A stretch of 64,000 nucleotides of DNA, taken from contig CAYMAN010000002.1 in assembly GCA_964388455.1 (NCBI GenBank), forward strand, positions 37,535 through 101,534, written 5' to 3'. Position 1 is the stretch's first letter. Each line of letters starts with the position of its first letter. Below the pieces are notes generated by a model that had not been told where the DNA came from, ran no database searches, and worked only from the letters and a program-made list of their open reading frames with translations. This DNA comes from an uncultured Eubacteriales bacterium (lineage in GTDB: Bacteria > Actinomycetota > Coriobacteriia > Anaerosomatales > JAAXUF01). The position numbers were made by a program, and so were the translations under genes. Shown piece by piece: positions 1,635 to 52,290 of this stretch.

Positions 1635-1643
1635 GAGACCGCC

Positions 1644-3122: not shown

Positions 3123-3147
3123 ATCTGACACAACTTGGAGGAACTCA

Positions 3148-6026: not shown

Positions 6027-6058
6027 GGGTGTGGGCGGCATCGTGGCCGCCCACACCC
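6027..6058 (+). terminator. Perfect 13-bp-stem hairpin between the wall-protein gene and the cytochrome gene (terminator, attenuator or mRNA-stabilising element)
   Basis: gggtgtgggcggc-atcgtg-gccgcccacaccc. No U-tract follows, so the terminator function is uncertain. Confidence 0.45.
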
Positions 6059-6079
6059 CCGACAGTACGGATTACACAC

Positions 6080-7648: not shown

Positions 7649-8901
7649 CTGACAACATTCCGCCCGCCAAACGGGCTGCGTTCGATCCCGCCCGCCTGCT
7701 GGCTTCGCCGCGATTTGCGCAGTGGCTGCTGGGCGTTTTGGCCTGGGTCGCCCTGGTGCTGCTGATACCCCTCGTGATCAACGGTCCAGGTGCGGGTGAG
7801 GCCGCCCAGCGGTTCGCTTCGGTGTCACTGCCGTTCCTGGCGTTGTACACGCTGCTCGCGGGATCGCTCCTCGTCTGCATGGTTGGGCGGTTCAACGGCG
7901 TCCGCAACCGTGTGTCGGTTCGTCCTCGTCCTCGCCTCAGTGTGGGGTCGAACTCAGTGATCGCCCCGTCGGACTTCGATCCCGAGACTGCGGCGAGCGT
8001 CTTGCGCCGAGCGGGCTACCGTCACGTGGAGACGAATGGGAGCTGGGCATGGGGGGTGAAGTATCCTTGGTCCCCGCTGGGGACGCTGATTCTTCACTCG
8101 TCGGTGCTCGTTGCGCTTCTTGGCGCGGCACTGGCCGTCACACCGGGAATCGACCGAATGACACACGTATCCGCACTCCAGGGCGTCACCGTGAAGGCTA
8201 CCGACGATGTGCCCGAGCTGCGGTTGAAATCGCTGGATGCCGTCCCCGGCGAGCAGGGGACGCTCCTGCGACTCTCCGGTGTGGTGCAGACCGCCACCGG
8301 CCGAGAAGTTCGAGTGCGACCCGATCTCCCCGCGCTGGTTGACCCGATCACGGCTGTGGTCATCGAGGACTACGACTTCGCGTCGACCTTTTCGGCTGTT
8401 CCTACTGGTGCGCTGCTCCCTGTGACCCGGCAGGTGAAGGCTCTACGGCTGAGGAAGTCTGGGGCCGCCGATAGGCTGATTCTGGACGCCGGCGCGCTCG
8501 GCACATATCGGATCACCGTGCGGTTGGACAAGGCGAATCCCGAGAACGTCATCGCGACGACCGAGCGGCGCGCAGCGCGCGGTGCGTGGCGGTTGGTCGA
8601 CAGTGAGCGAGCGTTCTCGAAAGGCGAGGTGGCGACGGTGGGCAAGATCCGCCTCCGCTTCGAGGGGTTGCGCTCGTACGCGATCCTGAGGGTTCATCGA
8701 GCTCCATCGGGCTCCATCATCGCCTTGGCGCTGCTGTCTGCGGTGCTCGGCGCGGGGTTGAGGCTGCTCCTCCCGAGAAATGAGGCGACTATCGCCAACG
8801 TCGCGGATTCGACCGTCGTTACCGTTGCGGTCGACGCGTACAAAGGTTCGCGTAGTGCCTCGGCGAAACTCGCCTTGGCGTTTGAGGAGGCCACATGGTA
8901 A
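7645..8901 (+). CDS. ResB/CcsB(Ccs1)-like System II cytochrome c biogenesis protein
   Basis: The GTG start overlaps the cytochrome stop (GTGA). N-terminal TM region FAQWLLGVLAWVALVLLIPLVI, a large extracytoplasmic domain, a conserved-looking His in LILHSSVLVALLGAAL, and a C-terminal TM. Confidence 0.7.
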   Translation: MTDNIPPAKRAAFDPARLLASPRFAQWLLGVLAWVALVLLIPLVINGPGAGEAAQRFASVSLPFLALYTLLAGSLLVCMVGRFNGVRNRVSVRPRPRLSVGSNSVIAPSDFDPETAASVLRRAGYRHVETNGSWAWGVKYPWSPLGTLILHSSVLVALLGAALAVTPGIDRMTHVSALQGVTVKATDDVPELRLKSLDAVPGEQGTLLRLSGVVQTATGREVRVRPDLPALVDPITAVVIEDYDFASTFSAVPTGALLPVTRQVKALRLRKSGAADRLILDAGALGTYRITVRLDKANPENVIATTERRAARGAWRLVDSERAFSKGEVATVGKIRLRFEGLRSYAILRVHRAPSGSIIALALLSAVLGAGLRLLLPRNEATIANVADSTVVTVAVDAYKGSRSASAKLALAFEEATW

Positions 8902-9698
8902 TCAGTCTCGCAGCAGCAGGCGCACTACATATTGTCGGAGCGCTTCTCGTGCTCGTGGGAATCGGCACCTCTTGGGTACGAGGTCCCGCCGGGAGGTGGA
9001 TGACACTCATCGCGTTCGCCGCGGGAGCCGCCGCACTCATCGCCGAGGGGGTGTTCCGCGCCGTCGTCACCGATCGAGCACCGTTGGTGGGCACGTACGA
9101 GAACACGCTCGTCGTCGCGATTCTGCTCCTAGTGGCCTGCTCGATCATTCTGGTGTTCACCGATCCGCCCGTGCGCTTGGCGCTCACTCGGCTTACGGCG
9201 CCATGGGCCATCCTCACACTGGCTTTCGGTTCGCGATTCACCTCCAGCCCGCTGCTCGTTGGCGTGGAAGGGCGTGGGTTGCTGGCCTACACTCATGCGT
9301 TCGTAGGCTGGCTCGATTTCACGGTTCTGATCGTGGGAACGATGGCCGCGTTGGCGATGCTGCTCAATCGCAGAGGTGAAGTGAGCGCGTGGCAGGCGGT
9401 GACGACTCGCATGCTCGGTGCCGGATTCGTGCTGCTCACCGCAACGATCGCAAGCGGCGCCGTTCTGAGCTTCGGTGTCTTCGGCTCGTGGTATCAGTGG
9501 CAGATCGTGGAGACGCTCTCGGCGGTGTTGTGGCTTGCCTACGGCTTCGCGTTGCATGCGTTTTTGCTGTTCGGATGGAAGGAGAGGCGACTTGCGGCTC
9601 TGACTGTCGCCGTGTTGCCGTTGGCTTTGGCGACCTTCTGGGTCTGGGCGCTCTATCCGGGCACATACCACTACTTCGAGCGAATCCTTGGCTCCTAG
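8895..9698 (+). CDS. CcsA/ResC-like cytochrome c assembly protein (heme handling)
   Basis: The ATG overlaps the ResB-like stop (ATGGTAA). Polytopic, with a Trp-rich WWD-like segment FGSWYQWQIVETLSAVLWLAYGFALH. Confidence 0.75.
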   Translation: MVISLAAAGALHIVGALLVLVGIGTSWVRGPAGRWMTLIAFAAGAAALIAEGVFRAVVTDRAPLVGTYENTLVVAILLLVACSIILVFTDPPVRLALTRLTAPWAILTLAFGSRFTSSPLLVGVEGRGLLAYTHAFVGWLDFTVLIVGTMAALAMLLNRRGEVSAWQAVTTRMLGAGFVLLTATIASGAVLSFGVFGSWYQWQIVETLSAVLWLAYGFALHAFLLFGWKERRLAALTVAVLPLALATFWVWALYPGTYHYFERILGS

Positions 9699-16409: not shown

Positions 16410-17203
16410 TGGCCCTGACTCACCGACATACCGCATCGACGGCGCAACCGGGTCGCGGCACGGCTGGTACGGCCGTCCACTGGGGTGTCGTCGCTGCGCT
16501 TTTCGCCTTCCTGGTGTGGATGGTCTTCGACAAGCGGGGGTTCTCGGCGCTGCTGCGGACGCTGGTGCCGGGTCAGCCGGTCGTGTACTACCCGGCGGTT
16601 CCGCTGCCCACACTCATGGCCGAGCAGCTCTACCTCGTCATCGTGGCGAGCAGTATCGCGTTGGCCGTGGGCGTGACGCTGGGGCTGCTTGCGCTGTCAC
16701 GCGTGGGCAAGCCGTTTCGCGACGTCATCGTGAACCTCGGCAATCTCGCGCAGACGGTGCCCACGGCTGCGGTGATGGCGCTCGCCATCCCGGCTACCGG
16801 CTACGGCGCTAGGCCGGTCATCATCGCGCTCGTGCTCTACAGCATCCTGCCCATCATGCTCAACGTGATCGTCGGCATCGAAGGCGTGCAGCCCGCGGCG
16901 CTCGACGCAGCGATTGGTGTCGGAATGTCGGCGCCACAGCGGCTCCTTTCCGTACAACTCCCACTCGCATTTCCAGTCATCCTCGGAGGGATCAAGAACA
17001 TGCTCGTCATCAACGTCAGCGCCGCGACCATCGGCGCCATCGCGGCGGCCGGCGGACTCGGTCAGCCCATCCTCGCCGGCTTCGCGCGCTATAACACCGC
17101 GTTCATCATCGAGGGCGCCCTGCCCGCAGCGGTGCTCGCGCTCTTCCTCGACCGGCTGCTCACCATCCCCGGCTGGTCCGAGCCCCGAGTGGGGGACGCG
17201 TAA
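16409..17203 (+). CDS. Second osmoprotectant ABC permease
   Basis: TGATG overlap. Permease core AAIGVGMSAPQRLLSVQLPLAFPVILGG. Confidence 0.85.
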   Translation: MALTHRHTASTAQPGRGTAGTAVHWGVVAALFAFLVWMVFDKRGFSALLRTLVPGQPVVYYPAVPLPTLMAEQLYLVIVASSIALAVGVTLGLLALSRVGKPFRDVIVNLGNLAQTVPTAAVMALAIPATGYGARPVIIALVLYSILPIMLNVIVGIEGVQPAALDAAIGVGMSAPQRLLSVQLPLAFPVILGGIKNMLVINVSAATIGAIAAAGGLGQPILAGFARYNTAFIIEGALPAAVLALFLDRLLTIPGWSEPRVGDA

Positions 17204-17204
17204 C

Positions 17205-18005
17205 ATGCCGCGTCACTTCGCTACCTACGCCGCTGCCGTGGACGCACTGGACGCCGCCGTCGAGCTTCGCCGAGAACCGGTCGGCATCAAGATCATCCGC
17301 TCGCAGGCCGAGTTCGACGCCTTCGACGCGCCAGAGCCCCGCGCACCCGCCTACTACTGCGCGCTGGTGAAGCTCGCCGCGCGCGGCTACCGCTACAAGC
17401 TCGCGCCTCATCACTTCAAGTGCGGTGCCGCCGCGCACCTGCTGGGCGTCGATCCCGTCGCCGATGAGATCGGCCGTGCCGACGAGTACGTCGCCTGCGG
17501 CCTCTACGCGCACGGGGATGCGGCCTTGGGTGCGCTCTCCGGCGTGCCGACGCTCGAGCCCGGCGTCGTCGGCGTTGTGGTGGCGCCGCTCGCGAGCTTC
17601 TCGGCTGACGAGGCGCCGGACGTGGCGATCATCATGGCGACCACGTACACCGCGATGCGGCTGGCGCAGGGCTACGGCTTCCACCGTGCGAGCGGCGCGG
17701 TGTCGCGGCTGCTGGGCATGCACGGCATCTGCGGCGAGAGCACCGCGGCACCGATCCTCTCCGGCGAGATGGGCGTGTCGCTGCTGTGCTCGGGCACGCG
17801 GTTCATGGCCAAGTGGGCCGACGACGAGCTGGCAGTCAGCCTCCCCGCCGAGCAGTTCGCCGAGTTCGTCGACGGCGTGCTCGAGACGCTGGCGCCGTGC
17901 GAGACCGACGCGAACAAGCGGGCGCACACCGCGCGTGCCGGCGATCGACTTGCGGCGTGCGACGTGAAAGTCGGGCTCGGCGAGGGCTACTACTACGACG
18001 TGTAG
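17205..18005 (+). CDS. DUF169-family protein
   Basis: Resembles DUF169 (..PVGIKIIRSQAEFD..YYCALVKLAARG..FKCGAAAHLLG..). Recognised from memory of the family only. Confidence 0.65.
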   Translation: MPRHFATYAAAVDALDAAVELRREPVGIKIIRSQAEFDAFDAPEPRAPAYYCALVKLAARGYRYKLAPHHFKCGAAAHLLGVDPVADEIGRADEYVACGLYAHGDAALGALSGVPTLEPGVVGVVVAPLASFSADEAPDVAIIMATTYTAMRLAQGYGFHRASGAVSRLLGMHGICGESTAAPILSGEMGVSLLCSGTRFMAKWADDELAVSLPAEQFAEFVDGVLETLAPCETDANKRAHTARAGDRLAACDVKVGLGEGYYYDV

Positions 18006-18162
18006 CGGGTCGCGAGTCGGTTCCGAGTGCGCCACGACGCGACATCGCATCCGCGAGTCTCGGCGCGTGTCACACCCCTCGGCTAGAATCGGAGTGCACC
18101 CGCCACCCCTCGGCTGGTGCACCTGAAGAGCACCCTGTTCGCACCAGGCCGAGGAGCCATCG

Positions 18163-19422
18163 ATGACATCACCCGTGCGGTTCGTTCACGCCGCCGACCT
18201 GCATCTCGACGCGCCGTTCCAGGGCATCGCCGCCGCTGACGCGCGTATCGGTGGCCAGCTGGCCGACGCGACTTACGAGGCGTTCCGCCGGATCGTCGAC
18301 GTGTGCATCGAGCGGGAGGCAGCCTTCCTCGTCATCGCCGGCGACGCCTACAACTCCGCCGACAAGAGTCTGCGCGCCCAGCTGCGCTTTCGCGCGGAGA
18401 TGGAGCGTCTCGCCGAGGCGGGCATCGACGTCTTCATCGCCAACGGAAACCACGATCCGCAGAGTGGGTGGTCGGCGGGGCTCGTGATGCCCGACAACGT
18501 CCACATCTTCTCAGCTCGCGAGGTCGATCGGTTCGAGGTGGTCCGCGCTGGTGAGACCATCGCAGCGGTGTACGGCCGCAGCTTCGCGCGCTCGGCGGAG
18601 ACCGACAACCTTGCGCTCGGCTACAGGCGCGCTGCGAGCGACCCGGTGGCGGTGGGCGTGCTGCACGCCAACGTCGGCGGCAATACGGACTACGACCCGT
18701 ACGCGCCCGCGTCGCTCGACGACCTGCGCACCGGCGGCATGGACTACTGGGCGCTCGGGCACATCCACAAGCAGGAGGTTCTGGCTGAGAACCCCTGGAT
18801 CGTCTATGCAGGCAGCCCACAGGGGCTCAACCCCAAGGAGACGGGCCCGCACGGATGCCTCGTGGTTGAGCTGGAGCCGGGCGGCGCCGCGACTCTCGAG
18901 CACGTGGAAACCGGGCCCGTGAGTTGGGCGCGCATCGACGTCGACGTGAGCGAAGCGGCAGGAATCGACGACGTACGAGCGCTGCTGGTGGCTGCGCTCG
19001 ATGAGCAACGACAGCTCGCGGGCAGGCATTGCGTCGCTCGCGTGGCTCTGGTCGGGCGCAGCATTGCGCATGCGGACTTGGCGCGTCCCGGAAATGCCAC
19101 GCAGCTGTTCGAAGATGTGCGGGGCGAGGCGGCACTCGCCGAGCCATGGCTGTGGCTCGACCGGCTGGACGACAAGACCGCGCCGCCCATCGATCTCGAC
19201 GCGCTCCGAGGTGGGCCTGACTTCGCCGCGGAGCTCGTACGCATCTCAGACGAACTCGCGGCCGACCCCGCAGCGCTCGAGGAGCTCGTCGGCGAGATCT
19301 CCACGCAGGTCGCAAGCACCCTCTCAGGCTATGAGCCGTCTGCTGCGCCTCCGGAACTGCTGGAGCGCGCCCGTGATGCCGCTCTCGATCTACTGCTGGC
19401 ACAGGGTGGTGATGTCCGATGA
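18163..19422 (+). CDS. SbcD/Mre11-family metallophosphoesterase (YhaO-like DNA repair exonuclease)
   Basis: GAGGAG RBS. Motifs VHAADLHLD, GDAYN, GNHD, GHIH. Confidence 0.8.
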   Translation: MTSPVRFVHAADLHLDAPFQGIAAADARIGGQLADATYEAFRRIVDVCIEREAAFLVIAGDAYNSADKSLRAQLRFRAEMERLAEAGIDVFIANGNHDPQSGWSAGLVMPDNVHIFSAREVDRFEVVRAGETIAAVYGRSFARSAETDNLALGYRRAASDPVAVGVLHANVGGNTDYDPYAPASLDDLRTGGMDYWALGHIHKQEVLAENPWIVYAGSPQGLNPKETGPHGCLVVELEPGGAATLEHVETGPVSWARIDVDVSEAAGIDDVRALLVAALDEQRQLAGRHCVARVALVGRSIAHADLARPGNATQLFEDVRGEAALAEPWLWLDRLDDKTAPPIDLDALRGGPDFAAELVRISDELAADPAALEELVGEISTQVASTLSGYEPSAAPPELLERARDAALDLLLAQGGDVR

Positions 19423-21950
19423 AGCTCTCGGCGATCGAGGCAACGCGCTACGGCGCATTTGAAGGAGCCTGTCTCAGCGGACTGGGCGACGGGCTTACCG
19501 TGGTCCTCGGTCCAAACGAGGCCGGCAAGTCGACCATGACGGCACTCACCCGCCATGTGCTCTACGGCTATCCCGACGCACGCACCAAGGAGTACGGATA
19601 CGTCTCCCCAGCGGGCCCCAGGGTCGCGCGGCTGATCTTCGCCGAGGACGGCGGGGAGTGGGTCATCGAGCGCGTCGACGGAAAGAATCGAGGACCGGTC
19701 ACCGTCGTAGCTCGCCACGGCGCCGAGAGGCCCGGCCTGCGCGAAAACCTCGTATCCGGCGTGACCGAGCAGTCGTATCGGGTCGTGTTCGGATTCGGGC
19801 TCGAGGAGCTCGCAGCCATCGAGCACGGAGACGCCACCGACATCGCCGCGCGTCTACACGCTGCGGGCACCGGGCTCAGCGTGAACCCGATGGACGTTCG
19901 CACTCAGATCGAGGCCCGGGCGGCAGCGATCTGGTCGCCGCGAGCCCAGAAGCCGGTCGTCAATTCGCTCGCAGCCGACATGCGAGCGTGCAAGGAACGC
20001 CTCCGCGCGCTCGAGACCGCCGCCGCCAATTACGCCACTGACCAGTCGCGGCTTGCCGAGCTCGCAGCCGAACTCAAGCCGCTCAAGGAGCGCATGGTGG
20101 AGCTGGAGACGCTCGGCCGCGTACTCGATCGCGATGCAACACGCCTCGCGGACTCCGTTGCCGCGCAGCAGGAACTGCGGGTGGCCATGGCCGACCTCTC
20201 GGCTGGGATCGCCGATCTTGAGCGTGCACGAGAGATGATTGATGTTGACGAGCGGGTCGTCGCCGTTGCGCCGCAGCTGGACAGTGTGCTCGAGGAGACG
20301 TTGGTATTCCGTGAGCGTCTCACAGCTTTGGACGCACAGGAAGCGGCAGCCGCCGAGGCTAGGCGTCGCGCGGAGGCTGACGGCGCCCTGCCAGCCGGAG
20401 CCGTGGACAGCGTAGCCAGCCGCGCTGAAGTCGAGCGCCGCCGAGACGAGCTCACGATGCTGCGTTCGGAGGCGACGGCTGCGACGCGTGCTGCCGAGGC
20501 AGCCGCCGCACGAGTGGTCGCAGTCGAGAAGCACGCAGCGGAGTTTGCGGCCGCGGGTACCGTCGGTACCGAGCGATCCGGCAAGCCCAGGATCCTGGCG
20601 GTGGTTGCAATAGTGGCCGGCGCGGTGTTTGCCGCGGCAGGCGCCATGTCGCAGCAGTACCTGGCGGCCGCCTTGGGCGGACTGCTGATCCTCGCGGGAG
20701 TCATCGCGCTCACCATGGTGCTCGCGCGTAAGTCCGACACCACCACTTCGCGTTCGCCGCTCTCTGAAGACGTCGCACGTGCACGCGCCGAGAGTGACGC
20801 TTCCGCCAGACTCGCGGCCGAGGCCAACGACAGGCTGGGCGCTGCGCAGTCGGCATGGGCCGCCTGGCTTGCCGCGCAGCAGTTGGTCGCCTACGGTGAC
20901 GATCCGGTCGCGGTCCGCCAGCTGCTCGACGACCTCGCCGAGCGCCAGCGCCTCTACGCGGAAGCGGATCGGTACACGAGCGAAGCAGCACGTATTCGTG
21001 AAGCCGCAGATGAATGGGTCGTCAGACTCGTTGAGTTGACCTCGCAGTTTGACGCGACCGCAGGCCAGATCCCGACGCTCTCGGCGGGTGTTGAACTTGC
21101 AACACGCGCACGCATTGCGCTTGAACGAGCCCGCGCTGCAGAGACCGACCGCACCGAGCTCGCGACCAAGCTGGACGCTACCCGCACCGAACTTCGCAAG
21201 CTGACAGAGCGTCTCGATACCGCCTCCTCGGTGGCGGCAGAAATCGTTGCGCGTCACTCGCTCGACGCGGGCGACCCGCTGCCCGCGCTGCAGTCCCTCG
21301 CCGCGGCTCAGGCCGACGAGCGCGCCGGCTTGCGCGAGCAGCTCGAGCGCCTGAGCACCGAACACGACGGACTGCAGGCGGTACTCGGCACTGAAGGCCG
21401 CGATCGTCAGATGGCACTCGATCGCCAGGCGCTCGAGGGTTTGCGCGCGCAGGCGGAGCAGGCGGCCGAGCGATACGTGGTCGACTCGCTTGCGGTCCGC
21501 CTCCTCAACCGTGCGCGCGAGCGTTTCGAGAGCGAGCGCCAGCCGGATGTTGTCCGCACGGCCGGCAGGGTCTTCTCGGCGATGACGGCTGGGCGCTACA
21601 CGGACGTTCGCGTGCCGCTCGATGGCAGCGGCGTCACCGTCCTCTCGGCATCGGGACGGCTCAAGACGAGCGACCAGCTCTCGCGCGGAACCGCCGAGCA
21701 GCTGTATCTCGCGCTGCGAGTCGGTCTCATCGGTTCGCTGGGGACGACTGGCGAGGCGTTGCCGGTGCTCATGGACGACGTCGTGGTCAACTTCGATCCC
21801 GAGCGCCGAGAAGGTGCCGTGTTGGCCATCGGCGAACTCGCTGCGATGCGACAGGTGCTGTTCTTCACCTGCCATCCCGAGACGGCAGCCGCGTTGACCG
21901 CTGGTGTCGCGGGTTCGAAGCTCCTGCAGATGGATCGCTGCGAGCTCTAA
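19419..21950 (+). CDS. SbcC/Rad50-like AAA ATPase (YhaN-like) with long coiled coils and a central TM hairpin
   Basis: ATGA overlap with the nuclease gene. Walker A GPNEAGKST, C-terminal signature LSRGTAEQLYLALR, Walker B LPVLMDD. Ala/Glu/Arg-rich coiled-coil middle region. Confidence 0.8.
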   Translation: MKLSAIEATRYGAFEGACLSGLGDGLTVVLGPNEAGKSTMTALTRHVLYGYPDARTKEYGYVSPAGPRVARLIFAEDGGEWVIERVDGKNRGPVTVVARHGAERPGLRENLVSGVTEQSYRVVFGFGLEELAAIEHGDATDIAARLHAAGTGLSVNPMDVRTQIEARAAAIWSPRAQKPVVNSLAADMRACKERLRALETAAANYATDQSRLAELAAELKPLKERMVELETLGRVLDRDATRLADSVAAQQELRVAMADLSAGIADLERAREMIDVDERVVAVAPQLDSVLEETLVFRERLTALDAQEAAAAEARRRAEADGALPAGAVDSVASRAEVERRRDELTMLRSEATAATRAAEAAAARVVAVEKHAAEFAAAGTVGTERSGKPRILAVVAIVAGAVFAAAGAMSQQYLAAALGGLLILAGVIALTMVLARKSDTTTSRSPLSEDVARARAESDASARLAAEANDRLGAAQSAWAAWLAAQQLVAYGDDPVAVRQLLDDLAERQRLYAEADRYTSEAARIREAADEWVVRLVELTSQFDATAGQIPTLSAGVELATRARIALERARAAETDRTELATKLDATRTELRKLTERLDTASSVAAEIVARHSLDAGDPLPALQSLAAAQADERAGLREQLERLSTEHDGLQAVLGTEGRDRQMALDRQALEGLRAQAEQAAERYVVDSLAVRLLNRARERFESERQPDVVRTAGRVFSAMTAGRYTDVRVPLDGSGVTVLSASGRLKTSDQLSRGTAEQLYLALRVGLIGSLGTTGEALPVLMDDVVVNFDPERREGAVLAIGELAAMRQVLFFTCHPETAAALTAGVAGSKLLQMDRCEL

Positions 21951-24526
21951 GCGTTGCGGTTCGAGCTGCCCCGGAGTGCGGCGTCGCTTCTGGCTGCGCG
22001 ATGAATGCGCAGCGAGTTGCCGATGACCGCGAGTGACGAGCCAGCCATAGCCAGAGCCGCGACGATCGGGGAGAGCCGGCCGGTGGCCGCGAGCGGTATC
22101 GCGACGACGTTGTAGGTGAACGCCCAGGCAAGGTTCTGCCCGATGATGCGATGGCTTGCCTTCGCGATGTCGAGCAGCGCTGCCAGCGACGTGAGCGGTG
22201 AGTCCTCGCGGGTGAGTACGACGTCGGCGGCCAGTACCGCAACGTCGGATCCGCCTCCAACGGCGACGGCGAGGTCGGACGCGGCGAGCGCGGCAGCGTC
22301 GTTGATGCCGTCGCCCACAAACGCGACCGTGCCCTCCTCGGTCAGCTCCCGGACCACACGCTCCTTCTCGTGGGGGAGCACATCGGCAAGCACACGAGTC
22401 ACACCAAGCCGCTTCGCGACCGCCTCGCAGGTCGCGCGCGCATCGCCCGAGACCATCGCGGTCGCCACGCCTCTAGCAGTCAGCGCCGCAACGGCGGATG
22501 CCGCTTCAGTCCTCGGACGGTCGCTCAGTCGCACCCCGCCGAGGACCTCGCCGTCGGCGGCGACCCACACGACCAGTTCGCCATCGCGCCGCATGAGCCC
22601 CGCGGTCGCCGCGAGAGTCGGGTCGAGCGCGACGCCCTTCTCGGCGAGCAGGCGTTCGCTGCCAACGAGCACGCGCACTCCGCTCGCTTTGCCGGAAAGC
22701 CCACGGCCAGGATGGCGTTCAACCTCGGACGCATCGTCATCCGCCGCACCTGCAGCCACGCGCGTCGCCACCGCAACGGCGCCCACGCCCACGCCCGCCG
22801 CAGCGATCGCGGCCGCCACCGGGTGCGCGTCTCCCAGCTCGATGGCTGCCGCCAACGTCAGCAGTCGCGTGGTCTCCTCGGCGGTCAGCGTGGGCGGCAG
22901 AAAGCCGACGACCGAGGGCGTGCCGACTGTCAGGGTGCCGGTCTTGTCGAACGCCACCACCGCGATTCCGCCGGCGGTCTCGAGTGCCGGGCCGCCTCGG
23001 AACAGCAGACCGTGCTTCGATCCGGCTGAGATCGCGGCAGAGAGTGCCACCGGCGTCGCCAGTCCCAGCGCGCAGGGGCACGACACCACCAGCACCGCCA
23101 CCGCACGCTCGACCGCACCCGCGAGTCCGACGCCGGTCGTCAGTCCTATGAGCAACGTCGCGGCGGCAATAGCGATCACCACCGGCGTGAACACCGCAGC
23201 CACGGCATCGGTGATGCGCTGCGTGTGCGATTTCGCGAATGCCGCGTCCTCCGCAAGCGCCGCCAGCCGCCCGGCGAGAGTTTCGGCGCCCGCGCGCGTG
23301 ACCCGCACCCTCAGCACCGCCGAGAGGTTCACTGTGCCGGCCCACACCTCGTCGCCAACGCCCACGTCAGCCGGTAGCGGTTCGCCGGTCAGTCGCGATC
23401 GATCGATCTCGCCGGTCCCGGCCAGCACGATCCCGTCGGCGGGCACTCTCTCGCCCGGACGGACCAGCACCACTGCATCGGGAGGCAGGTCGACGATCGC
23501 GGCTCTTGTCGCAGCCAGCTCGGGATTCTCAACGCTCGCACCGTCGGCCACCCCCGGCGCCTCAACCAGCCACGCGCTCTCCTCTGCAGCGGAAGCGAGC
23601 GCTGCGAGTGAGGCGGTGGCGTCGCGCGTCGAGAGCGCCTCGATCCACCGGCCTGCGAGCACAATCGTCACCACTCCGGCGGCCGACTCGAAGTACGTCG
23701 GTCCGCTCGCGGTCCAGACCGCCCACGCGCTGTAGAACCACGCCGAGAACGTCCCCAGCACCACCAGCGTGTCCATCGTCGCGCGCCGAACATTCGCTGC
23801 TCGCCACGCGCCGACGATGAACGGCCAGCCGCAGTAGACGAGCACCACCAGCGACAGCGCGCCGGTGAAGGTGTCGTACGCGGCGACGCTCGCGTACTCG
23901 CCGCGCGCGAAGGCGGGCCACGAGACGAACCACGTGGGCCACATGACCCACATTCCCACCGCCAGCGAGACAAACAGCCGCAGGAAGAGATCGTCTACGT
24001 CTGCGCGACGTGCGGCGGCCTCGCGCGCAGGAACCGCATGGTAGCCGAGCAGCTTGATGCGGTCCGTGATGGTGTCTAGGGCGAGGAGCGTCGGATCCCA
24101 CGTCACTCGCAACAGGGATGCTGCGTAGCTGGTCTCGGCGTCGAGCACGCCGGGTAGCGCCATGAGCGCGTCTTCGAGCACCAGCCCGCACGACGTGCAC
24201 CACATGCCCTCGATTCGCAGGGTTTCGCGCCGGGCGCCGGCCGCAGCGGCCGCAGCAGCCTTACGAGCCCCGGCCGCCGAGCCACGCGAGCGACGGGTCC
24301 GCCCCGACACCAGCAGCTCGGAGATTCCGGCCTCCTTGGCGGTCACGTAGACGCGTCGGCATCCCTCGCAGCAGAAGTCGTGATCGTGATCGTGGATGGG
24401 CCGGCCGAGAACCGGCAGTCCGCAGAGATCGCACTCTGAGGAGGCGTGTGAGTCGCCTCGCGAGGGTTTGCTGCGCGCAGACCCGCCGCGCGAGGACCCA
24501 CCGGAGGCGTCGGTCACACCGCTCAC
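21947..24526 (-). CDS. ccoI: Cu(+)-translocating P1B-type ATPase of the CcoI/FixI type
   Basis: The GTG at 24526 overlaps the upstream stop (GTGA). N-terminal CDLCGLP..CCEGC metal-binding segment, HMA motif GMWCTSC, CPC in SCPCALGLATP, DKTGT, GDGINDA. Confidence 0.85.
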   Translation of the reverse strand: MSGVTDASGGSSRGGSARSKPSRGDSHASSECDLCGLPVLGRPIHDHDHDFCCEGCRRVYVTAKEAGISELLVSGRTRRSRGSAAGARKAAAAAAAGARRETLRIEGMWCTSCGLVLEDALMALPGVLDAETSYAASLLRVTWDPTLLALDTITDRIKLLGYHAVPAREAAARRADVDDLFLRLFVSLAVGMWVMWPTWFVSWPAFARGEYASVAAYDTFTGALSLVVLVYCGWPFIVGAWRAANVRRATMDTLVVLGTFSAWFYSAWAVWTASGPTYFESAAGVVTIVLAGRWIEALSTRDATASLAALASAAEESAWLVEAPGVADGASVENPELAATRAAIVDLPPDAVVLVRPGERVPADGIVLAGTGEIDRSRLTGEPLPADVGVGDEVWAGTVNLSAVLRVRVTRAGAETLAGRLAALAEDAAFAKSHTQRITDAVAAVFTPVVIAIAAATLLIGLTTGVGLAGAVERAVAVLVVSCPCALGLATPVALSAAISAGSKHGLLFRGGPALETAGGIAVVAFDKTGTLTVGTPSVVGFLPPTLTAEETTRLLTLAAAIELGDAHPVAAAIAAAGVGVGAVAVATRVAAGAADDDASEVERHPGRGLSGKASGVRVLVGSERLLAEKGVALDPTLAATAGLMRRDGELVVWVAADGEVLGGVRLSDRPRTEAASAVAALTARGVATAMVSGDARATCEAVAKRLGVTRVLADVLPHEKERVVRELTEEGTVAFVGDGINDAAALAASDLAVAVGGGSDVAVLAADVVLTREDSPLTSLAALLDIAKASHRIIGQNLAWAFTYNVVAIPLAATGRLSPIVAALAMAGSSLAVIGNSLRIHRAARSDAALRGSSNRNA

Positions 24527-25317
24527 AGCGCGCCGGCCAGTGCGAAACCCTGCAGCAGCGTGATCGCGCCCAGGACCATGACCGCGCCCGCCGCCACAGG
24601 CGCGACCCATCCACGGGCGCGGGCGCTCAACAGCTCCGATGCCGCGCCGAAGCCCGCCAGTGCCGGCACCGTACCAAGCCCGAACGCGAGCATCGTCATC
24701 GCACCGAACAGTGGCGTACCGGTCGCGAGCGCTGCGATCTCAACGGGGAGTAGCGGGGCACAGGGCACAAGGCCCATGAGCGCGCCCAGCGGCAGCCCCC
24801 ACCAGCCGTCGGAGCGAGCGAGTCGCGCCACGGCCCATCGGAACCACGGCATCGATGTCAAAGCCGCGGTCGGCTCCGGTAACGTCGCCTTACGACCGCG
24901 CATCCATGCGACTAACAACACGACGCCCATGGCCACCATCGTCGCGCCAGCCGCTAGCTTCAGAAACTGCGTGATCCCGACCGGCGAGAACGGTCCGGCC
25001 ACCTTCGAGAGTGCCCCCGCCTCACCCAACAACCCAAGGAGCGCCCCGAGGAGCGCGTATGTGCCGAGCCTGCCCAGGTGGTAGGCGAGCTGGAAGACGC
25101 CACTGCGCCGCGCCCCAACCCGCGCCCCAGCCGGTGCGCCTGCCCTCGCTCCGGCCCCGCCACCCGCGCCGCAGACGACCTCGGAGTCGGTGACGCTGGC
25201 TGCCGCGACAAACGGGCCGCACATCGCCAGGCAGTGGCCAAAGCCACCGGTGAGCCCCAACAGGAAGGCCCCCCACAGCGAGAGCGTCGACAGGTTCGAT
25301 GACATCGCTGCGTGCAT
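24523..25317 (-). CDS. DsbD_2/TauE-like polytopic membrane protein commonly linked to cbb3 maturation genes
   Basis: GGFGHCLAMCGP motif and about 6 TM helices. A Gly/Ala-rich insertion follows TM1. The start could instead be M5 (25305). Confidence 0.6.
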   Translation of the reverse strand: MHAAMSSNLSTLSLWGAFLLGLTGGFGHCLAMCGPFVAAASVTDSEVVCGAGGGAGARAGAPAGARVGARRSGVFQLAYHLGRLGTYALLGALLGLLGEAGALSKVAGPFSPVGITQFLKLAAGATMVAMGVVLLVAWMRGRKATLPEPTAALTSMPWFRWAVARLARSDGWWGLPLGALMGLVPCAPLLPVEIAALATGTPLFGAMTMLAFGLGTVPALAGFGAASELLSARARGWVAPVAAGAVMVLGAITLLQGFALAGAL

Positions 25318-25346
25318 GCGCGAGGGCCTTCCGGGTCAGGCGTACG

Positions 25347-25700
25347 CTAGCTGAAGTTGAAACCCGCTTGTGCGAAGAGCACCACATAGACGACGGTCCA
25401 GATGAGCACCGAGACGATCGTGAGCTTGATGATCAGCGGCATCGGATTGTGAGCCTCGGAGATCCCTTCAGGGAACTCGTGGATCATCGGAAGTCCGCCG
25501 TTGGCCAGCTCAGTCTTCTTGAGATTCTTGTGACTGTGCGGCAAGACGGGCTCTGTCGAGATCTCGGCGACCGCAACGGGTTCGGCGACTTCCGTCCGTC
25601 CCACCCATCCGCCGCGAATCACCGCCCAGATGGCGACGAGGATTCCTGCTCCCACGGCGAGGCCCCACACCACGGCCGATATCTGCTGGTCGACGGGCAT
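25347..25700 (-). CDS. Two-TM protein resembling the N-terminal membrane-anchor domain of CcoP (FixP_N-like), without heme motifs
   Basis: HEFPEGISEAHNPMPLIIKLTIVSVLIWTVVYVVLF compares with the CcoP N-terminal consensus H.FDGI.EYDNPLP.WW...F (recalled from memory). No CxxCH. Confidence 0.6.
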   Translation of the reverse strand: MPVDQQISAVVWGLAVGAGILVAIWAVIRGGWVGRTEVAEPVAVAEISTEPVLPHSHKNLKKTELANGGLPMIHEFPEGISEAHNPMPLIIKLTIVSVLIWTVVYVVLFAQAGFNFS

Positions 25701-25873
25701 CAGCGTTCACCTTCCATTCGAACGGGCATGGGGTCATCGCCATCAAGCACCACGAGTGACGCAGAGTTCAGGTTGCGAAACTGTCCCGTGGCCATCGCCA
25801 GTGCAAGCGCCACTCCGGCGCCGACCATGAACGTCACAACCGTGGCGCCGATGAGGTATACCGCGAGATCCAT
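25700..25873 (-). CDS. ccoS: CcoS/FixS-like cbb3 oxidase maturation protein (57 aa, absent from the supplied ORF track)
   Basis: Hand translation gives MDLAVYLIGATVVTFMVGAGVALALAMATGQFRNLNSASLVVLDGDDPMPVRMEGER: one TM helix plus the GQF..L......L.DDD pattern of CcoS. Its start overlaps the upstream stop (TAATG) and its stop overlaps the next start (TGATG). Confidence 0.7.
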   Translation of the reverse strand: MDLAVYLIGATVVTFMVGAGVALALAMATGQFRNLNSASLVVLDGDDPMPVRMEGER

Positions 25874-27762
25874 TACTGGTCACCCCCCGGGCCGCCCTTG
25901 GCACCGGCGAGTTGACGACCATAGAACACGACCGCCCACTTCTCCTGCTCGGTGAGCATGTTGCGCCACGCAGGCATCGCCGTGGGATGCTTCCCGTTGT
26001 CTCCGACGACCCCGGCATCGATTCGCCAGTACCAGAAGTCCAGGCCGGCAGTGAGCGCCGGATCCTCGGTCAGGTTCGCAGGCGTGGGAAGCAGGAGTGT
26101 TCCGTTGGGACCATCGCCGAGTGCTTTGGTTCCGTGGCAGTTCGTGCAGAGCCGTACCCACAGCTCCTCGCCCCGCGCCAGGGTCTCAGGAGTAGGGGAG
26201 AACGGCGCAGCATCCAGCGCCTGATACCCCGGAGGCACATCGTCGCTCACGTCACGGGGTTCACTCGGATTCACGAACGTGCCCTTGAGGTACTTGATGG
26301 TGGCCCAGCGATCCTCCTCGGACAGGAGCAACCGCCACTGCGGCATCGCCGCGTTGCCGATACCGTGGCTGACCTTCCAGTACCACTCAGCGTCAGGGAA
26401 CTTCTTCAGGTCGGGCTCGGTGAAGTTGGCTGGCAGCGGCACCAGATGTTTGCCGTCCGGCCCCTCGCCCTGACCTGCATCGCCGTGGCACATCCAGCAG
26501 CGCTGGAAGTAGACCTGGCGGCCGCGCATGAGGTCCGTGTCCGCCGGCATCTTGAGCCCCTCGGCGGTCTTGGGGATCTCGGGATCCTTGGGCTCTGCGG
26601 TGGGGTTCGGGAAGATCAGCACGTTGCGAGAGTACCCGGCGACGAGTTTGAGCTGCTCCGGCGAGAGCCAGGTGTGCCACCGCGGCATCGCGCGAAGCGG
26701 GATGGAGTCGGTGACGCGCCACAGGTAGTCGCCCGGCGTCCAGTCCTTGTAGGTCGTGGTGTCCGAGAAGTCCGGCGGCGCGGGCAACAGGCCGGCGGCG
26801 TCCGGGCCGTCTCCGTTGCCTGCGTATCCGTGGCAGAACGCGCAGTTGCCCACGAAGATCGCCTTGCCGGCCTCGATGTTGTCGAGCGTGGGCTCGGCGA
26901 TGGTCGCGCTGGCGTACTTGGCGGGCAGATCGCCTTCGTCTGCGAACGCAGGGGTCATGTCCATGAACGCCTTCTGGACGAACAGGATCACCAGCCACCG
27001 CTCGTCCTCGGACATGGACTGCTTCCACTCCGGCATGGCGGTACCGGCCACGCCGTCGCTTATCCTCCAGAACGCGAAGTGGCTGGGGAGGTTCTTGTAC
27101 TTCTCGTCACGCAGGTTGGCGGGCCGCGCGTTGTTGAGCATCGCGTAGGGACCATCGCCCTTGCCGGCGCAGCCGTGACACGTCAGGCAGAGCTCAGCGT
27201 AGATGTCGCGGCCGCGTTCGTAGTTCTCGTCGGTCAGCTCGAACTTGTTTGTCTCGTACTTCGGTCCGAGGTACTTGACCGGGATCATGAGGTCGGTCGA
27301 AGCGTTCTGCTGATTACCGAGCCGGTTGAGGTAGGCCACGATCGCGACGAGCTGACGTTCCGAGAGGTAGCTGAACGCCGGCATCACGGAGTTGGGAGAG
27401 AACTTCCGCGGGTCGAGCAGGTGGTCCATCTCCCAGCGATCGCCGCGCTTGAGGCCGATGTTCGCCAGATCGGGACCGGTGCGCAGCGTGCCCAGCTGAT
27501 GCGGCTGGTCATAGGCGAACTCCCCGGATTCGCTCACGCGAGAAGGGGTGGCGTCGCCGGGTCGCGTGAACTGGCTGTGACAGTACATACAACCGTTGCT
27601 GACGTAGAGGTTGCGACCCTCTTCCTCGAGAGCGGTGTAGGGCACCGTTTGGAGCGTGGGCTTGGGCTGGAACACCACCGCGGGGAGGAACACGACGAAG
27701 GCGACGACGGTGAGCACGACGGCGAGCCCGCCGATGATGATGAGGCGCGGCGACATCTTCAT
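25873..27762 (-). CDS. CcoO (FixO) monoheme subunit fused to four class-I cytochrome c domains (CcoP-like x2); five CxxCH in total
   Basis: N-terminal TM plus GCMYCHSQF..LGTLRTGPDL (FixO-like). Then CLTCHG, CAFCHG, CWMCHG and CTNCHG, each followed by a distal AMP.W Met-ligand motif. Confidence 0.85.
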   Translation of the reverse strand: MKMSPRLIIIGGLAVVLTVVAFVVFLPAVVFQPKPTLQTVPYTALEEEGRNLYVSNGCMYCHSQFTRPGDATPSRVSESGEFAYDQPHQLGTLRTGPDLANIGLKRGDRWEMDHLLDPRKFSPNSVMPAFSYLSERQLVAIVAYLNRLGNQQNASTDLMIPVKYLGPKYETNKFELTDENYERGRDIYAELCLTCHGCAGKGDGPYAMLNNARPANLRDEKYKNLPSHFAFWRISDGVAGTAMPEWKQSMSEDERWLVILFVQKAFMDMTPAFADEGDLPAKYASATIAEPTLDNIEAGKAIFVGNCAFCHGYAGNGDGPDAAGLLPAPPDFSDTTTYKDWTPGDYLWRVTDSIPLRAMPRWHTWLSPEQLKLVAGYSRNVLIFPNPTAEPKDPEIPKTAEGLKMPADTDLMRGRQVYFQRCWMCHGDAGQGEGPDGKHLVPLPANFTEPDLKKFPDAEWYWKVSHGIGNAAMPQWRLLLSEEDRWATIKYLKGTFVNPSEPRDVSDDVPPGYQALDAAPFSPTPETLARGEELWVRLCTNCHGTKALGDGPNGTLLLPTPANLTEDPALTAGLDFWYWRIDAGVVGDNGKHPTAMPAWRNMLTEQEKWAVVFYGRQLAGAKGGPGGDQ

Positions 27763-27777
27763 GGTCGCGTCTCCTCT

Positions 27778-29175
27778 CTACACGCTCGCCGCGGCGGGCG
27801 CGGCTTCTGCGGTCTCGGGCTTGTCGGCAGGGAGTGCGCGTGCGGCGAGCGTGGTCCTGATGATGTTATAGGCGAACAGGTACTGCGCGAAGATGATGAC
27901 CGTGCCGGCAGCAGCACGTCCGATCCACAACGATCTGATGCCGGGAAGAATCTGAACGATCGGGATGCCCTGCTTGAAGCCGCCCGCCTGCACCAGACCA
28001 GCCGCCGTGAGGACGAGGAAGAAGCTGAGGAACCCGACGGTCGTCATCCACCAGTGGGTCCACGCGAGCCGGTCAGAGTACAGCGGCACGCCAAGGATGC
28101 GCGGCATCATGTAGTACAGCATGCCCCACAGCGAGAAGGCGACGAAGCCCAGCAGCGCGAGGTGGGCGTGGGCCACGGACCAGTTCGTGAAGTGGATGAA
28201 CTGGTTGAAGCTACGCAACGCCTGGAACGAGCCCTGGATACTCACGGCGAGATAGAACCCGATGCCGGTCAGGACGAAGCGCAGGGGAATCGACGAATAC
28301 GCGATGTGCCATGCCCCTCGCATGGTCATGAACATGTTCACCACAAAGGCGAACACCGGTACGAGAAGGCCGATCGAGCAGATGACAGAGACCGTCTTAA
28401 GCCACTCGGGGACCGGTGCCCCCAGGATGTGGTGAGTTCCCACTCCGCTGTAGAAGAAGGCAAGACCCCAGAACGCGATCAATGCAAGCACGTATCCGTA
28501 GATGGGCTTCTTCGTCTCGCGCGGGACGATGTAGTAGATCAAGGCAACTGTGCCGGTGGTGAACCAGAGGCCCAAGATGTTATGCCCGTAGAACCAGGCC
28601 CAGATAGCATCGTTGAGCCCCATCAGCGAGCCGGTGGGGGGTGCCCAGATGACATTCCCCAGCGCGAACACGATCGGGAACCAGATCAGCGTTCCCATCA
28701 CGTACCAGAGCGACACGTAAAGGGCGGGCTCCTTGCGGCGTGCAATCGTCATGAAGAGATTGAATGCCGTAAGCACCAGCGCGACCATGACTGCGATGTC
28801 GATCGGCCATGCGAGTTCCGCGTACTCACGACCCTGGGTCCAGCCCAGTGTCAGACCGACGACGCCAACTGCTAGCACTAAGTTCCACGCCCATGCCACG
28901 AAGACGCCCAGCTTCTCCGAGTACACCTCGCCTTTGGCGAGACGCGGAATGACGTAGTACCATCCGCCCACCATCGCCATGGATAGCCACCCAAAGGCCA
29001 GGCCGTTGACGTGCGCTTGTCGGATGCGAGGAAACACCAGCCATGCGACTCCTCGGAACGAATCTGGTGCGATGAACTCGATCGCCTGTATCAGGCCGAG
29101 CGTAATCGCGACCACAAGCCAGAAGATGGCGGATTCTGCCATCAACCGCGCGGTGGCATCCCTGCGCTGCGTCAT
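27778..29175 (-). CDS. ccoN: cbb3-type (C-family) heme-copper oxidase catalytic subunit CcoN
   Basis: WFYGHN, GTHH and VAHAHLALLG motifs. 12-TM-like profile. Confidence 0.9.
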   Translation of the reverse strand: MTQRRDATARLMAESAIFWLVVAITLGLIQAIEFIAPDSFRGVAWLVFPRIRQAHVNGLAFGWLSMAMVGGWYYVIPRLAKGEVYSEKLGVFVAWAWNLVLAVGVVGLTLGWTQGREYAELAWPIDIAVMVALVLTAFNLFMTIARRKEPALYVSLWYVMGTLIWFPIVFALGNVIWAPPTGSLMGLNDAIWAWFYGHNILGLWFTTGTVALIYYIVPRETKKPIYGYVLALIAFWGLAFFYSGVGTHHILGAPVPEWLKTVSVICSIGLLVPVFAFVVNMFMTMRGAWHIAYSSIPLRFVLTGIGFYLAVSIQGSFQALRSFNQFIHFTNWSVAHAHLALLGFVAFSLWGMLYYMMPRILGVPLYSDRLAWTHWWMTTVGFLSFFLVLTAAGLVQAGGFKQGIPIVQILPGIRSLWIGRAAAGTVIIFAQYLFAYNIIRTTLAARALPADKPETAEAAPAAASV

Positions 29176-29395
29176 GCGGCTCCCCCTTTGGATGAATCAG
29201 CAGATAGCGGGCGTGCGTGAGTGTGCACGCGCTTGCGCACATACACGGAGTTCTTCCCCAAGAACCAGAAGATGGATACCTGAATCAGGAAGATGAGGCC
29301 TGCCACGTACGGTCGCCGAGGAGCCCGTTCTGCCTACTCCCGCGCGGCAGCGTACAATCACTCGATCACGCCGCTTGCCGAGAGGCCTCCACAGA

Positions 29396-30446: not shown

Positions 30447-31001
30447 ATGACTGGAACTGAAGATCTGCGATCCGAGCATGTGGGCGTCAGCAGGATGCTA
30501 CATATCATGGATTCGATGGCCGGGTATGCCCGTAGGGGTGAGGGGCCTGCACCCGAGGACGTTGAACAGGCAGTGGAGTTCCTTCGGGTCTTCGTGGATA
30601 AGTGCCATCACACCAAGGAGGAGGAACTTCTCTTCCCCGCGATTCGGGCCGCGAACATCGCGTCCGCCGAGGACACCATCGTCGTGCTGCTTGCTGATCA
30701 CGCGCAGGGGCGGGAGACGGTCGCCCGCATCGCAGCCGCTGCGCAGCACCTTTCGGCAGACGGTGTTCCTGCAAACACGGAGTTCGCCGAGGCGATAGCC
30801 AGCTACACGGAGCTTCTCCACCAGCACATTCGCCGAGAGGAGAGCGAGTGCTTCGACGTGGCCGACCGAGAGCTGTCTGAAGCCGTGCAGGCGGAGCTCG
30901 TTACCGGGTACGACAGGATCGAGCGCGAGGTGGTTGGAGGAGGCGTGCACGAGGCCTTCCACGCCATGCTCGATCGGCTTGGTCAAGTGTATCGAGCGTA
31001 G
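30447..31001 (+). CDS. Hemerythrin-like (HHE cation-binding) domain protein
   Basis: His/Glu ligand pattern: LRSEH.., CHHTKEEELLFP, LLADHAQG, HQHIRREE. Confidence 0.75.
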   Translation: MTGTEDLRSEHVGVSRMLHIMDSMAGYARRGEGPAPEDVEQAVEFLRVFVDKCHHTKEEELLFPAIRAANIASAEDTIVVLLADHAQGRETVARIAAAAQHLSADGVPANTEFAEAIASYTELLHQHIRREESECFDVADRELSEAVQAELVTGYDRIEREVVGGGVHEAFHAMLDRLGQVYRA

Positions 31002-52282: not shown

Positions 52283-52290
52283 GGTCGCCC

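Follow-up and report, generated by a model that had tools for sequence, protein, structure and literature searches.

Gene Arrangement of the cco Locus

The DNA analysed here is a stretch of 64,000 nucleotides, referred to as the window, from an uncultured bacterium assigned to the Coriobacteriia (assembly GCA_964388455.1, contig CAYMAN010000002.1, positions 37,535 to 101,534 of the forward strand). It contains six closely spaced genes related to those for cbb3-type cytochrome c oxidases, the C-family of oxygen reductases (Table 1). An earlier reading of this DNA, here called the original prediction, had placed six minus-strand open reading frames (ORFs) at positions 21947-29175, and all of them were found there. 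Their products were assigned to families using Pfam and NCBIfam profiles. An independent gene call on the identical public contig revealed the same six products of 465, 629, 57, 117, 264 and 859 amino acids (aa), respectively.

Table 1: Features of the cco locus (positions within the window; TM, transmembrane; nt, nucleotides).
Feature	Position	Strand	Description
ccoN	27778..29175	-	465 aa, about 12 TM helices; COX1 266 bits
ccoN-ccoO spacer	27763..27777	-	15 nt with GAGGAG Shine-Dalgarno sequence
ccoO fusion	25873..27762	-	629 aa; FixO (residues 12-137) and four class-I cytochrome c domains
ccoS-like gene	25700..25873	-	57 aa, one TM helix; weak FixS match
FixP_N-like gene, putative stand-alone CcoP-type anchor	25347..25700	-	117 aa, two TM helices, no haem domain
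DsbD_2 gene, polytopic membrane protein	24523..25317	-	264 aa; PF13386 129.6 bits
ccoI-type gene, predicted Cu(I)-exporting P1B ATPase	21947..24526	-	859 aa, GTG start
Intergenic region between ccoN and the divergent RNase_T-family gene	29176..29374	.	presumed operon promoter region

The gene junctions were read from the DNA. A TAATG overlap connects ccoO and ccoS, a TGATG overlap connects ccoS and the FixP_N-like gene, a gap of 29 nt follows, and the DsbD_2 gene and ccoI share a GTGA overlap. Because of this last overlap the GTG at position 24526 was chosen as the start of ccoI, in preference to the start of the maximal ORF of 887 aa. Chaining by overlaps, which had been proposed for the whole group, thus applies to three of the five junctions, while the other two are short gaps of 15 and 29 nt. 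A consensus scan revealed no promoter-like sites within the operon and two terminator-like sites, compared with 3.0 expected by chance. The overlaps, the short gaps and the lack of an internal promoter signal agree with the predicted packing of structural and maturation genes into one tight, probably co-translated unit. Judged from this layout, the six genes probably form one transcription unit packed for co-expression. At its end, the stop region of ccoI overlaps by 4 nt (21947-21950) with the end of a convergent gene for an AAA_27-domain protein (19419-21950, plus strand, 843 aa), so that there is no space for an intergenic terminator after ccoI.

The ratio of nonsynonymous to synonymous substitution rates (dN/dS) was determined against four relatives and ranged from 0.09 to 0.52 across the six genes; these values are approximate, with dS near saturation. 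The gene order was seen in more than 15 independent loci, which is far above chance. By these comparative measures all six genes are real and under selection.

The Catalytic Subunit CcoN

In a search of all PDB sequences the five best matches of CcoN were CcoN chains of cbb3 oxidases, with E values from 5e-69 to 6e-58 and the entries 9g6b and 3mk7 as the best. The NorB subunit of the cytochrome c-dependent nitric oxide reductase (cNOR) was matched with an E value of 4e-10, and subunit I of the A- and B-family oxidases (ba3/aa3) with 2.6e-5 or weaker. Alignment with the Pseudomonas stutzeri protein assigned H55, H198, H248, H249, H336 and H338 to H60, H207, H257, H258, H345 and H347, respectively. 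These six histidines, of which two belong to the low-spin haem b, one to haem b3 and three to CuB, were invariant in 117-118 of the 118 clade sequences. Y242 corresponds to P. stutzeri Y251, the helix-VII tyrosine located six residues ahead of the HH pair, and was conserved without exception (118/118). After the first CuB histidine the sequence reads HNILGL, with Gly-Leu in place of Glu; we take this stretch to be the site of the extra FeB glutamate ligand of cNOR. Thus, the original prediction of a cbb3-type enzyme was borne out, since CcoN did not group with the nitric oxide reductases (E values of about 5e-69 versus 4e-10) and has kept the active-site tyrosine.

Further positions are given in P. 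stutzeri numbering. The equivalents of E122/E125, T215, Y223, N289, T293 and Y317 were invariant across the 118 clade sequences. The position of S240 is occupied by A or S, that of H243 by A or G in all clade sequences, and that of E323 by Q in 117 of the 118. We assume that T215, Y223, S240, H243, N289, T293 and Y317 form the single K-type proton channel, with H243 in its lower part, and that E323 is the hydrogen bond partner of the proximal histidine of haem b3; these roles follow the P. stutzeri structure. On the evidence of these alignments CcoN is a true subunit of a C-family (cbb3-type) O2 reductase with a complete predicted active site, and it is not a canonical equivalog.

A Five-Haem CcoO and a Probably Divided CcoP

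The FixO profile (PF02433) matched residues 12-137 of the CcoO fusion with 132.2 bits (gathering score 29.6), and Cytochrome_CBB3 matched five stretches with a total of 183 bits. The protein contains CxxCH motifs at residues 58, 192, 307, 422 and 539, each followed by a methionine-ligand motif of the form (A/V)MPxW/F; in the CcoO domain itself these are CMYCH at residue 58 and SVMPAF. One N-terminal TM helix anchors the chain. Residues 15-160 were matched to CcoO chains of the PDB with E values of 1e-23 to 1e-25, and the later domains matched the CcoP chain 3mk7_C and monohaem subunits of alternative complex III (ACIII). The four additional haem domains share 26-36% identity with each other and show a QcrC-type similarity (NF050122, 72.5 bits). 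The fusion replaces the last third of the FixO profile.

A second copy of part of this gene set was observed in one relative. In L016 a block at 17188-21338, comprising a CcoO-like multihaem cytochrome lacking FixO, ccoS, the two-helix gene, the DsbD_2 gene and the ATPase gene, is tandemly repeated directly after the first operon. This block represents either a real duplication or an artefact of long-read assembly.

The 117-aa protein encoded downstream of ccoS was matched by FixP_N (PF14715) with an E value of 5.8e-5 and 23.2 bits (gathering score 24.9), and 5 of 11 orthologues gave a FixP_N match at E < 0.01. Its TM segments cover residues 5-34 and 86-116, and it contains no CxxCH motif. A conserved segment H(E/D)(Y/F)P(E/D)G(I/L)xEAHGPxP precedes the second helix. 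With a profile built from 21 sequences of this two-helix family, the top four hits across the PDB were all CcoP chains (E values of 0.02, 0.09, 0.12 and 0.97). The profile aligned co-linearly with residues 10-76, the N-terminal hairpin of CcoP, and the near-invariant E82 was aligned with CcoP E49 in the sequence DGIEEYDNPLP. In C-family oxidases, CcoP E49 has been proposed as the point where protons enter the channel. Homology of the two-helix protein to the N-terminal anchor of CcoP is probable on these profile matches, although not proven; it is rated no higher because the individual statistics are marginal and no full-length CcoP was reached.

The single-chain architecture of CcoP, a FixP_N anchor joined to two haem c domains, is not present at this locus, where the anchor is separate and the haem domains are fused to CcoO. 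The domain matches point to a split CcoP, whose haem domains would have increased to four by duplication and become fused to CcoO, with the anchor kept as a separate small subunit. The original prediction had called the module streamlined. This understates the change, for the subunits are re-partitioned into a five-haem CcoO and a split CcoP, and DsbD_2 has been added.

Assembly Genes

The FixS profile (PF03597) matched the 57-aa protein weakly (E value 0.16, 12.2 bits, gathering score 23.1). A FixS match was obtained for 10 of 12 positional orthologues, the best with an E value of 1.4e-10. Size, single-TM topology and position among the cco genes all fit CcoS, and dN/dS values for this gene were 0.12-0.38.

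The product of ccoI scored 510 bits with TIGR01525 (cutoff 346) and 434 bits with the Cu-ATPase model TIGR01511 (cutoff 397). Its translation contains GMWCTSCG of the HMA domain and the motifs DKTGT, CPC, YN and MxxSS. The N-terminal CxxC...CCxxC region matched the FixI-type ATPase-cat_bd family weakly (E value 0.0013, 19.8 bits, gathering score 27). The ATPase gene was linked to ccoN and ccoS in the operons of all lineages examined. By motifs and Cu-ATPase models, the product is a predicted Cu(I) P1B-ATPase, putatively of the CcoI/FixI type as opposed to the CopA-type detoxification pumps.

The gathering score of PF13386 (24.9) is far exceeded by the DsbD_2 protein (Table 1). In an alignment of 28 sequences C29, M32 and C33 (HCxxMCGP) and C186 (LPC) were invariant and H28 near-invariant. 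A set of ligands of this kind would suit Cu(I), and equally a CcdA-like dithiol relay. An AlphaFold2 model (mean predicted local distance difference test score 79.9) revealed no significant fold match in the PDB. The NCBI label of the homologues is "sulfite exporter TauE/SafE family protein". Of the lineages examined, L017 and L018 were the only ones whose cco cluster lacked DsbD_2. As had been predicted, no candidate for CcoQ, CcoG or CcoH was detected nearby: the FixQ, FixG and FixH families had no match among the scanned ORFs across the 64-kb window.

Distribution and Inheritance

In a genome collection dereplicated at the species level, the loci nearest to that of the window came from metagenome-assembled genomes (MAGs) titled Coriobacteriia, Actinomycetota and Actinomycetes, with CcoN identities of 68-87%; a few close loci carried the evidently noisy labels "delta proteobacterium" and "Eubacteriales". 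The order ccoN, five-haem ccoO, ccoS, two-helix gene, DsbD_2 gene and ATPase gene was kept in about 12 close relatives, where the flanks are also syntenic, with the RNase_T gene upstream and the AAA_27 and Metallophos genes downstream. The same six genes were found in a Thermoleophilia MAG (CcoN 72% identical) and in a MAG labelled "Firmicutes" (58%). A sister subclade with CcoN identities of about 50% carries Chloroflexi/Anaerolineae labels and lies on contigs of 1-4 Mb. Its clusters consist of ccoN, five-haem ccoO, FixS, a two-helix gene of 102 aa, a gene for a soluble protein of roughly 110 aa and the ATPase gene; in one of them the DsbD_2 gene follows the ATPase gene. The layout is therefore not unique to the window, being present in MAGs labelled Coriobacteriia, Thermoleophilia and "Firmicutes" and, as a close variant, in Chloroflexi-type genomes.

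The gene for this conserved soluble protein, which sits between those for the two-helix protein and the ATPase, was located at 14074-14394 in L017, 13905-14237 in L018 and 6246-6590 in L022. The protein of about 110 aa had no Pfam match and is not encoded in the operon of the window.

Acidobacterial CcoN sequences with 41-43% identity branched outside the clade, and there ccoN is accompanied only by a shorter fusion of ccoO and cytochrome. The underlying CcoN tree, a reduced neighbour-joining tree, is a rough one: it was calculated from Kimura distances with a single proteobacterial outgroup and carries no support values.

The composition of the operon was compared with that of 38 other genes of the window. 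The GC content was 0.664 versus 0.656 ± 0.029, the GC content at third codon positions (GC3) 0.820 versus 0.812 ± 0.055, and the codon-usage distance 0.053, which is below the background mean of 0.123. Recent acquisition is not supported, because the composition matches the flanks and because synteny is maintained in the relatives; from this the cco operon appears to be vertically inherited in this lineage. The horizontal acquisition considered in the original prediction was not upheld by these results.

Proposed Function and Alternative Explanations

Taken together, the locus probably codes for a functional haem-copper oxygen reductase of the cbb3 type (C-family), which forms a subtype of its own, and for dedicated assembly factors, all in one transcription unit that is vertically inherited. 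Electrons, for which a bc complex, ACIII or a multihaem network are candidate donors, would enter via the membrane-anchored five-haem subunit, which is predicted to combine the CcoO domain and four CcoP-like haem c domains in one chain. This chain may act as a tethered wire that replaces soluble periplasmic cytochrome c in a Gram-positive-type envelope. From the CcoO haem the electrons would pass to haem b and then reach the centre of haem b3, CuB and Tyr in CcoN, the predicted site of O2 reduction. Protons would be taken up through the K-type channel of the C-family, with the entrance glutamate contributed by the stand-alone two-helix protein. CcoI is expected to export Cu(I) for CuB and CcoS to aid cofactor insertion, so that the two would load CuB and the haems. 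The DsbD_2 protein may be a lineage-typical extra assembly factor, acting either in the handling of Cu(I) or in a thiol relay of the CcdA kind that would supply the five CxxCH sites. It may take over part of the roles of the missing CcoG and CcoH. The enzyme would serve micro-oxic respiration, O2 scavenging or both in an organism whose class consists mostly of anaerobes.

Several results weigh against this assignment. CcoN is a divergent branch with 31% identity to P. stutzeri CcoN, and its score of 292.9 bits with the ccoN model TIGR00780 is below the equivalog cutoff of 583. The NCBIfam equivalog cutoffs for CcoO (TIGR00781, 116 versus 200.65) and for CcoP-type proteins were missed as well, and the FixP_N and FixS scores of the window proteins lie below the Pfam gathering scores. 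A library-wide search with the two-helix profile among 1.84 billion representatives retrieved 13 short relatives and no canonical or full-length CcoP, so that the homology to CcoP rests on the Pfam and PDB-restricted searches. The function of DsbD_2 is pure inference and its model found no fold match. Since canonical H243 is replaced by A/G and E323 by Q throughout the clade, O2 affinity and proton pumping may differ from those of known enzymes. Finally, cultured Anaerosomatales, one order of the Coriobacteriia, do not grow at 2% O2 (PMC9686372), and energy-conserving respiration is for this reason not assured.

The enzyme could instead reduce NO or N2O, as a member of the cNOR-like or "N2O red" families within the C-family branch. 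C-family oxidases have their nearest relatives in the nitric oxide reductases cNOR and qNOR and in the proposed N2O reductase family (PMC11214002), CcoN stays below the ccoN equivalog cutoff, and NO reduction by cbb3 enzymes is known in vitro. However, the NOR and "N2O red" families do not have the active-site tyrosine (PMC11214002), which is invariant here. All three CuB histidines are present, Gly-Leu occupies the presumed site of the FeB glutamate, the E value of CcoN against its own family is lower than that against NorB by about 59 orders of magnitude, and the co-encoded Cu(I) ATPase and CcoS fit a CuB rather than an FeB centre. An identity as NOR or N2O reductase was rejected on the active-site residues and is highly improbable. 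Even less credit is due to the idea that the ccoS-like and FixP_N-like genes are chance ORFs and that there are four real genes. Many spurious ORFs occur in high-GC genomes, and both small proteins stay below the Pfam gathering scores. Against this, position, length and TM topology are kept even in lineages in which CcoN is about 50% identical, dN/dS values are 0.12-0.52, start/stop overlaps tie both genes to their neighbours, both were reported by independent gene callers, orthologues reach FixS at an E value of 1.4e-10, and the top PDB hits of the two-helix family are CcoP chains only. For practical purposes the chance-ORF explanation is refuted. A recently acquired horizontal-transfer island is unlikely too, if by a slightly smaller degree than an NO or N2O reductase. 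C-family oxidases have long been said to be absent from Actinobacteria (PMC5829832), and with Chloroflexi-type (about 50%) and acidobacterial (41-43%) proteins as the nearest outgroups an ancient inter-phylum transfer somewhere in the clade is likely, possibly among Gram-positive-type phyla. A recent transfer is a different matter: GC, GC3 and codon usage equal those of the 38 flanking genes, no mobile-element genes are adjacent to the operon, and operon and flanks are syntenic in the 68-87% identical relatives, by which this reading is largely refuted.

A question of another kind is whether a working oxidase merely scavenges O2 for protection of an obligate anaerobe and supports no growth by respiration. 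The first cultured Coriobacteriia of the OPB41/Anaerosomatales group are reported to be Gram-positive obligate anaerobes, which are nevertheless positive for catalase and for oxidase with tetramethyl-p-phenylenediamine (TMPD), and no quinones were detected in them (PMC9686372); cbb3 is not mentioned in that paper. Genes for a multihaem cytochrome c and for a sulfite-reductase-like protein in the window are typical of anaerobic respiration, and H243 of the lower proton channel and E323 are altered. On the other hand, the upper proton channel and the CcoP-type glutamate are conserved, which would be needless for a non-electrogenic scavenger. A role in scavenging alone is an appreciable possibility, although we consider it the lesser one. 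It concerns the physiological role and is compatible with the mechanism favoured here, a functional cbb3-type O2 reductase.

Relation to Published Work and Implications

A published survey reported Actinobacteria and Firmicutes as devoid of C-family oxidases (PMC5829832), and annotation pipelines already name the proteins [quoted passage not shown]. A literature search on cbb3 in Coriobacteriia, OPB41, Anaerolineae and Thermoleophilia, and on ccoI/ccoS together with TauE/DsbD, revealed only MAG surveys that touch on cbb3 genes in passing, for Actinobacteriota or Anaerolineae. No paper was found on a five-haem CcoO, a split CcoP or an association with DsbD_2. The original prediction had named a layout common and already characterised in related taxa as a point that would speak against it; the layout is indeed common there, but no paper was found that characterises the operon experimentally.

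We tentatively suggest, as a speculation with less than even chances, that a "Gram-positive/terrabacterial" subtype of cbb3 oxidase has so far gone unrecognised and that the locus belongs to it. This subtype would be defined by a split CcoP, a five-haem CcoO as membrane-tethered entry wire in the place of soluble cytochrome c, an entrance glutamate provided by the two-helix protein and DsbD_2, with its HCxxMCGP site, as a new factor for copper or thiol assembly in place of CcoG/CcoH, and it would explain the TMPD activity of "obligately anaerobic" Coriobacteriia. If true, this would overturn the textbook view of Actinomycetota without C-family oxidases.

C-family oxidases are a standard genomic marker of micro-oxic respiration. 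The cbb3 system described here appears to be intact, under selection and inherited vertically in environmental members of the Coriobacteriia and Thermoleophilia, and its subunit plan appears adapted to a cell lacking a periplasmic pool of cytochrome c. If active, it would change the reading of abundant "anaerobes" of sediment and groundwater. It would also provide a natural experiment on dispensable parts of cbb3 oxidases (CcoQ, CcoG, CcoH, an intact CcoP, E323 and H243), and it would nominate DsbD_2 as a candidate assembly factor that is genetically testable in better-studied bacteria with a similarly annotated "TauE" in their cco clusters.

Host and Genomic Context

The original prediction of an Actinomycetota-like genome agrees with the titles of the nearest loci, Coriobacteriia and Actinomycetota, and with a cluster of FHA, FHA, PP2C, RodA, penicillin-binding protein (PBP), PknA and PknB genes at 47.5-56.4 kb of the window. 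Such a cluster is characteristic of Actinobacteria. A CWB2 cell-wall-binding protein is also encoded in the window. At 49523-52290 on the minus strand RodA (FTSW_RODA_SPOVE) and PbpA (PBP_dimer_2 and Transpeptidase) lie in one stop-free frame with a GC3 of 0.77-0.91 throughout, which looks like a fusion of a SEDS protein and a class-B PBP of about 920 aa within an fhaA/fhaB-pstP-rodA-pbpA-pknA-pknB cluster.

Positions 6029-9698 of the plus strand carry a gene for a 539-aa multihaem cytochrome c of the c7/c3 type, followed at 7.6-9.7 kb by ResB-like and CcsA-like genes of System II. With these maturation genes the host is able to attach haem c, possibly also to the five-haem CcoO. The cytochrome locus may belong to an electron-transfer chain that is extracellular or anaerobic. 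Genes for a CysN-like GTPase fragment, a sirohaem synthase (NAD_binding_7 and TP_methylase) and a small sulfite-reductase-like protein (NIR_SIR and 4Fe-4S) at 168-3999 on the plus strand suggest sulfite or sulfur metabolism. No genes for a bc complex were detected in the window.

No sigma-70 consensus was found in the region upstream of ccoN. In the relatives L002-L005, L011, L012, L014 and L016 a gene for a phosphoribosyltransferase-like protein of 215 aa lies between the RNase_T gene and ccoN (for example L004, 1669-2316), and this interval contains a conserved TAGAATGG/TACAATGG element. Gene and element are both missing in the window. The promoter region of the cco operon has therefore been remodelled in the window, and as the gene is missing there the upstream region cannot be aligned with that of the relatives.

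A hemerythrin-domain gene is located 1.3 kb upstream of ccoN (30447-31001, plus strand). Its product may sense or buffer O2 as a partner of the oxidase, or its position may be a coincidence. A homologue with 43% identity (20731-21279) lies about 7 kb from the cco cluster of L018, and none was found near the clusters of close relatives. Hemerythrin as a conserved cco partner was rejected, for it occurs near only this one distant cluster.

Comparison with Known Systems

The canonical cbb3 oxidases of P. stutzeri (3MK7/5DJQ), Rhodobacter capsulatus and Bradyrhizobium (fixNOQP-fixGHIS) share with the predicted enzyme the metal ligands, the helix-VII tyrosine, the glutamate of the Ca site and the upper K-type channel. 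Both also have a TM-anchored haem c domain of CcoO and haem c domains of the CcoP type, and for maturation the window encodes putative counterparts of CcoS and of the Cu(I) ATPase CcoI. The window protein CcoN differs by its low identity (31%) and by the E323Q and H243A/G replacements. Canonical CcoP has two haem domains, whereas four are fused to CcoO in the window and the 117-aa two-helix anchor is separate. Furthermore, CcoQ, CcoG and CcoH are missing, DsbD_2 is inserted, the genes form one overlapping operon, and the envelope is of the Gram-positive type.

The merging of structural and maturation genes, emphasised in the original prediction, applies to this locus and was already known outside the Proteobacteria, for example in green sulfur bacteria. 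In Bacteroidota/Chlorobi-type clusters such as that of Prosthecochloris, ccoNOQP, ccoGHIS and "tauE" are combined in one operon (PMC10158934). These clusters resemble the window also in the variable architecture of CcoP, and their conserved extra membrane protein bears the same TauE/SafE label as the DsbD_2 homologues. In contrast to the window they keep CcoQ, CcoG, CcoH and a CcoP joined to FixP_N, and their CcoO has no four extra haem domains.

Similar in arrangement is the Chloroflexi/Anaerolineae type (L017, L018, L022), with the same order of ccoN, five-haem ccoO (648-663 aa), FixS, two-helix gene (~102 aa) and P1B ATPase gene and with the same E323Q and H243A/G replacements. It differs by the extra soluble protein of ~110 aa and by DsbD_2, which is not in the block or follows the ATPase. 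The acidobacterial type, in which CcoN is combined with a "bifunctional subunit II/cytochrome c" (PRK14486-type; L008-L015), is the sister group in the rough tree. It also has CcoO fused C-terminally to cytochrome c, but with one extra haem domain only; E323 is mostly kept, and no ccoS, FixP_N-like, DsbD_2 or ccoI gene lies adjacent within 10 kb.

Finally, the actinobacterial bcc-aa3 supercomplex, in which a dihaem QcrC is wired to the oxidase, follows the same logic of placing extra haem c in a membrane subunit where no soluble periplasmic cytochrome c is used. There the oxidase belongs to the A-family, whereas the window enzyme is predicted to be of the C-family and to carry the extra haems on the oxidase side.

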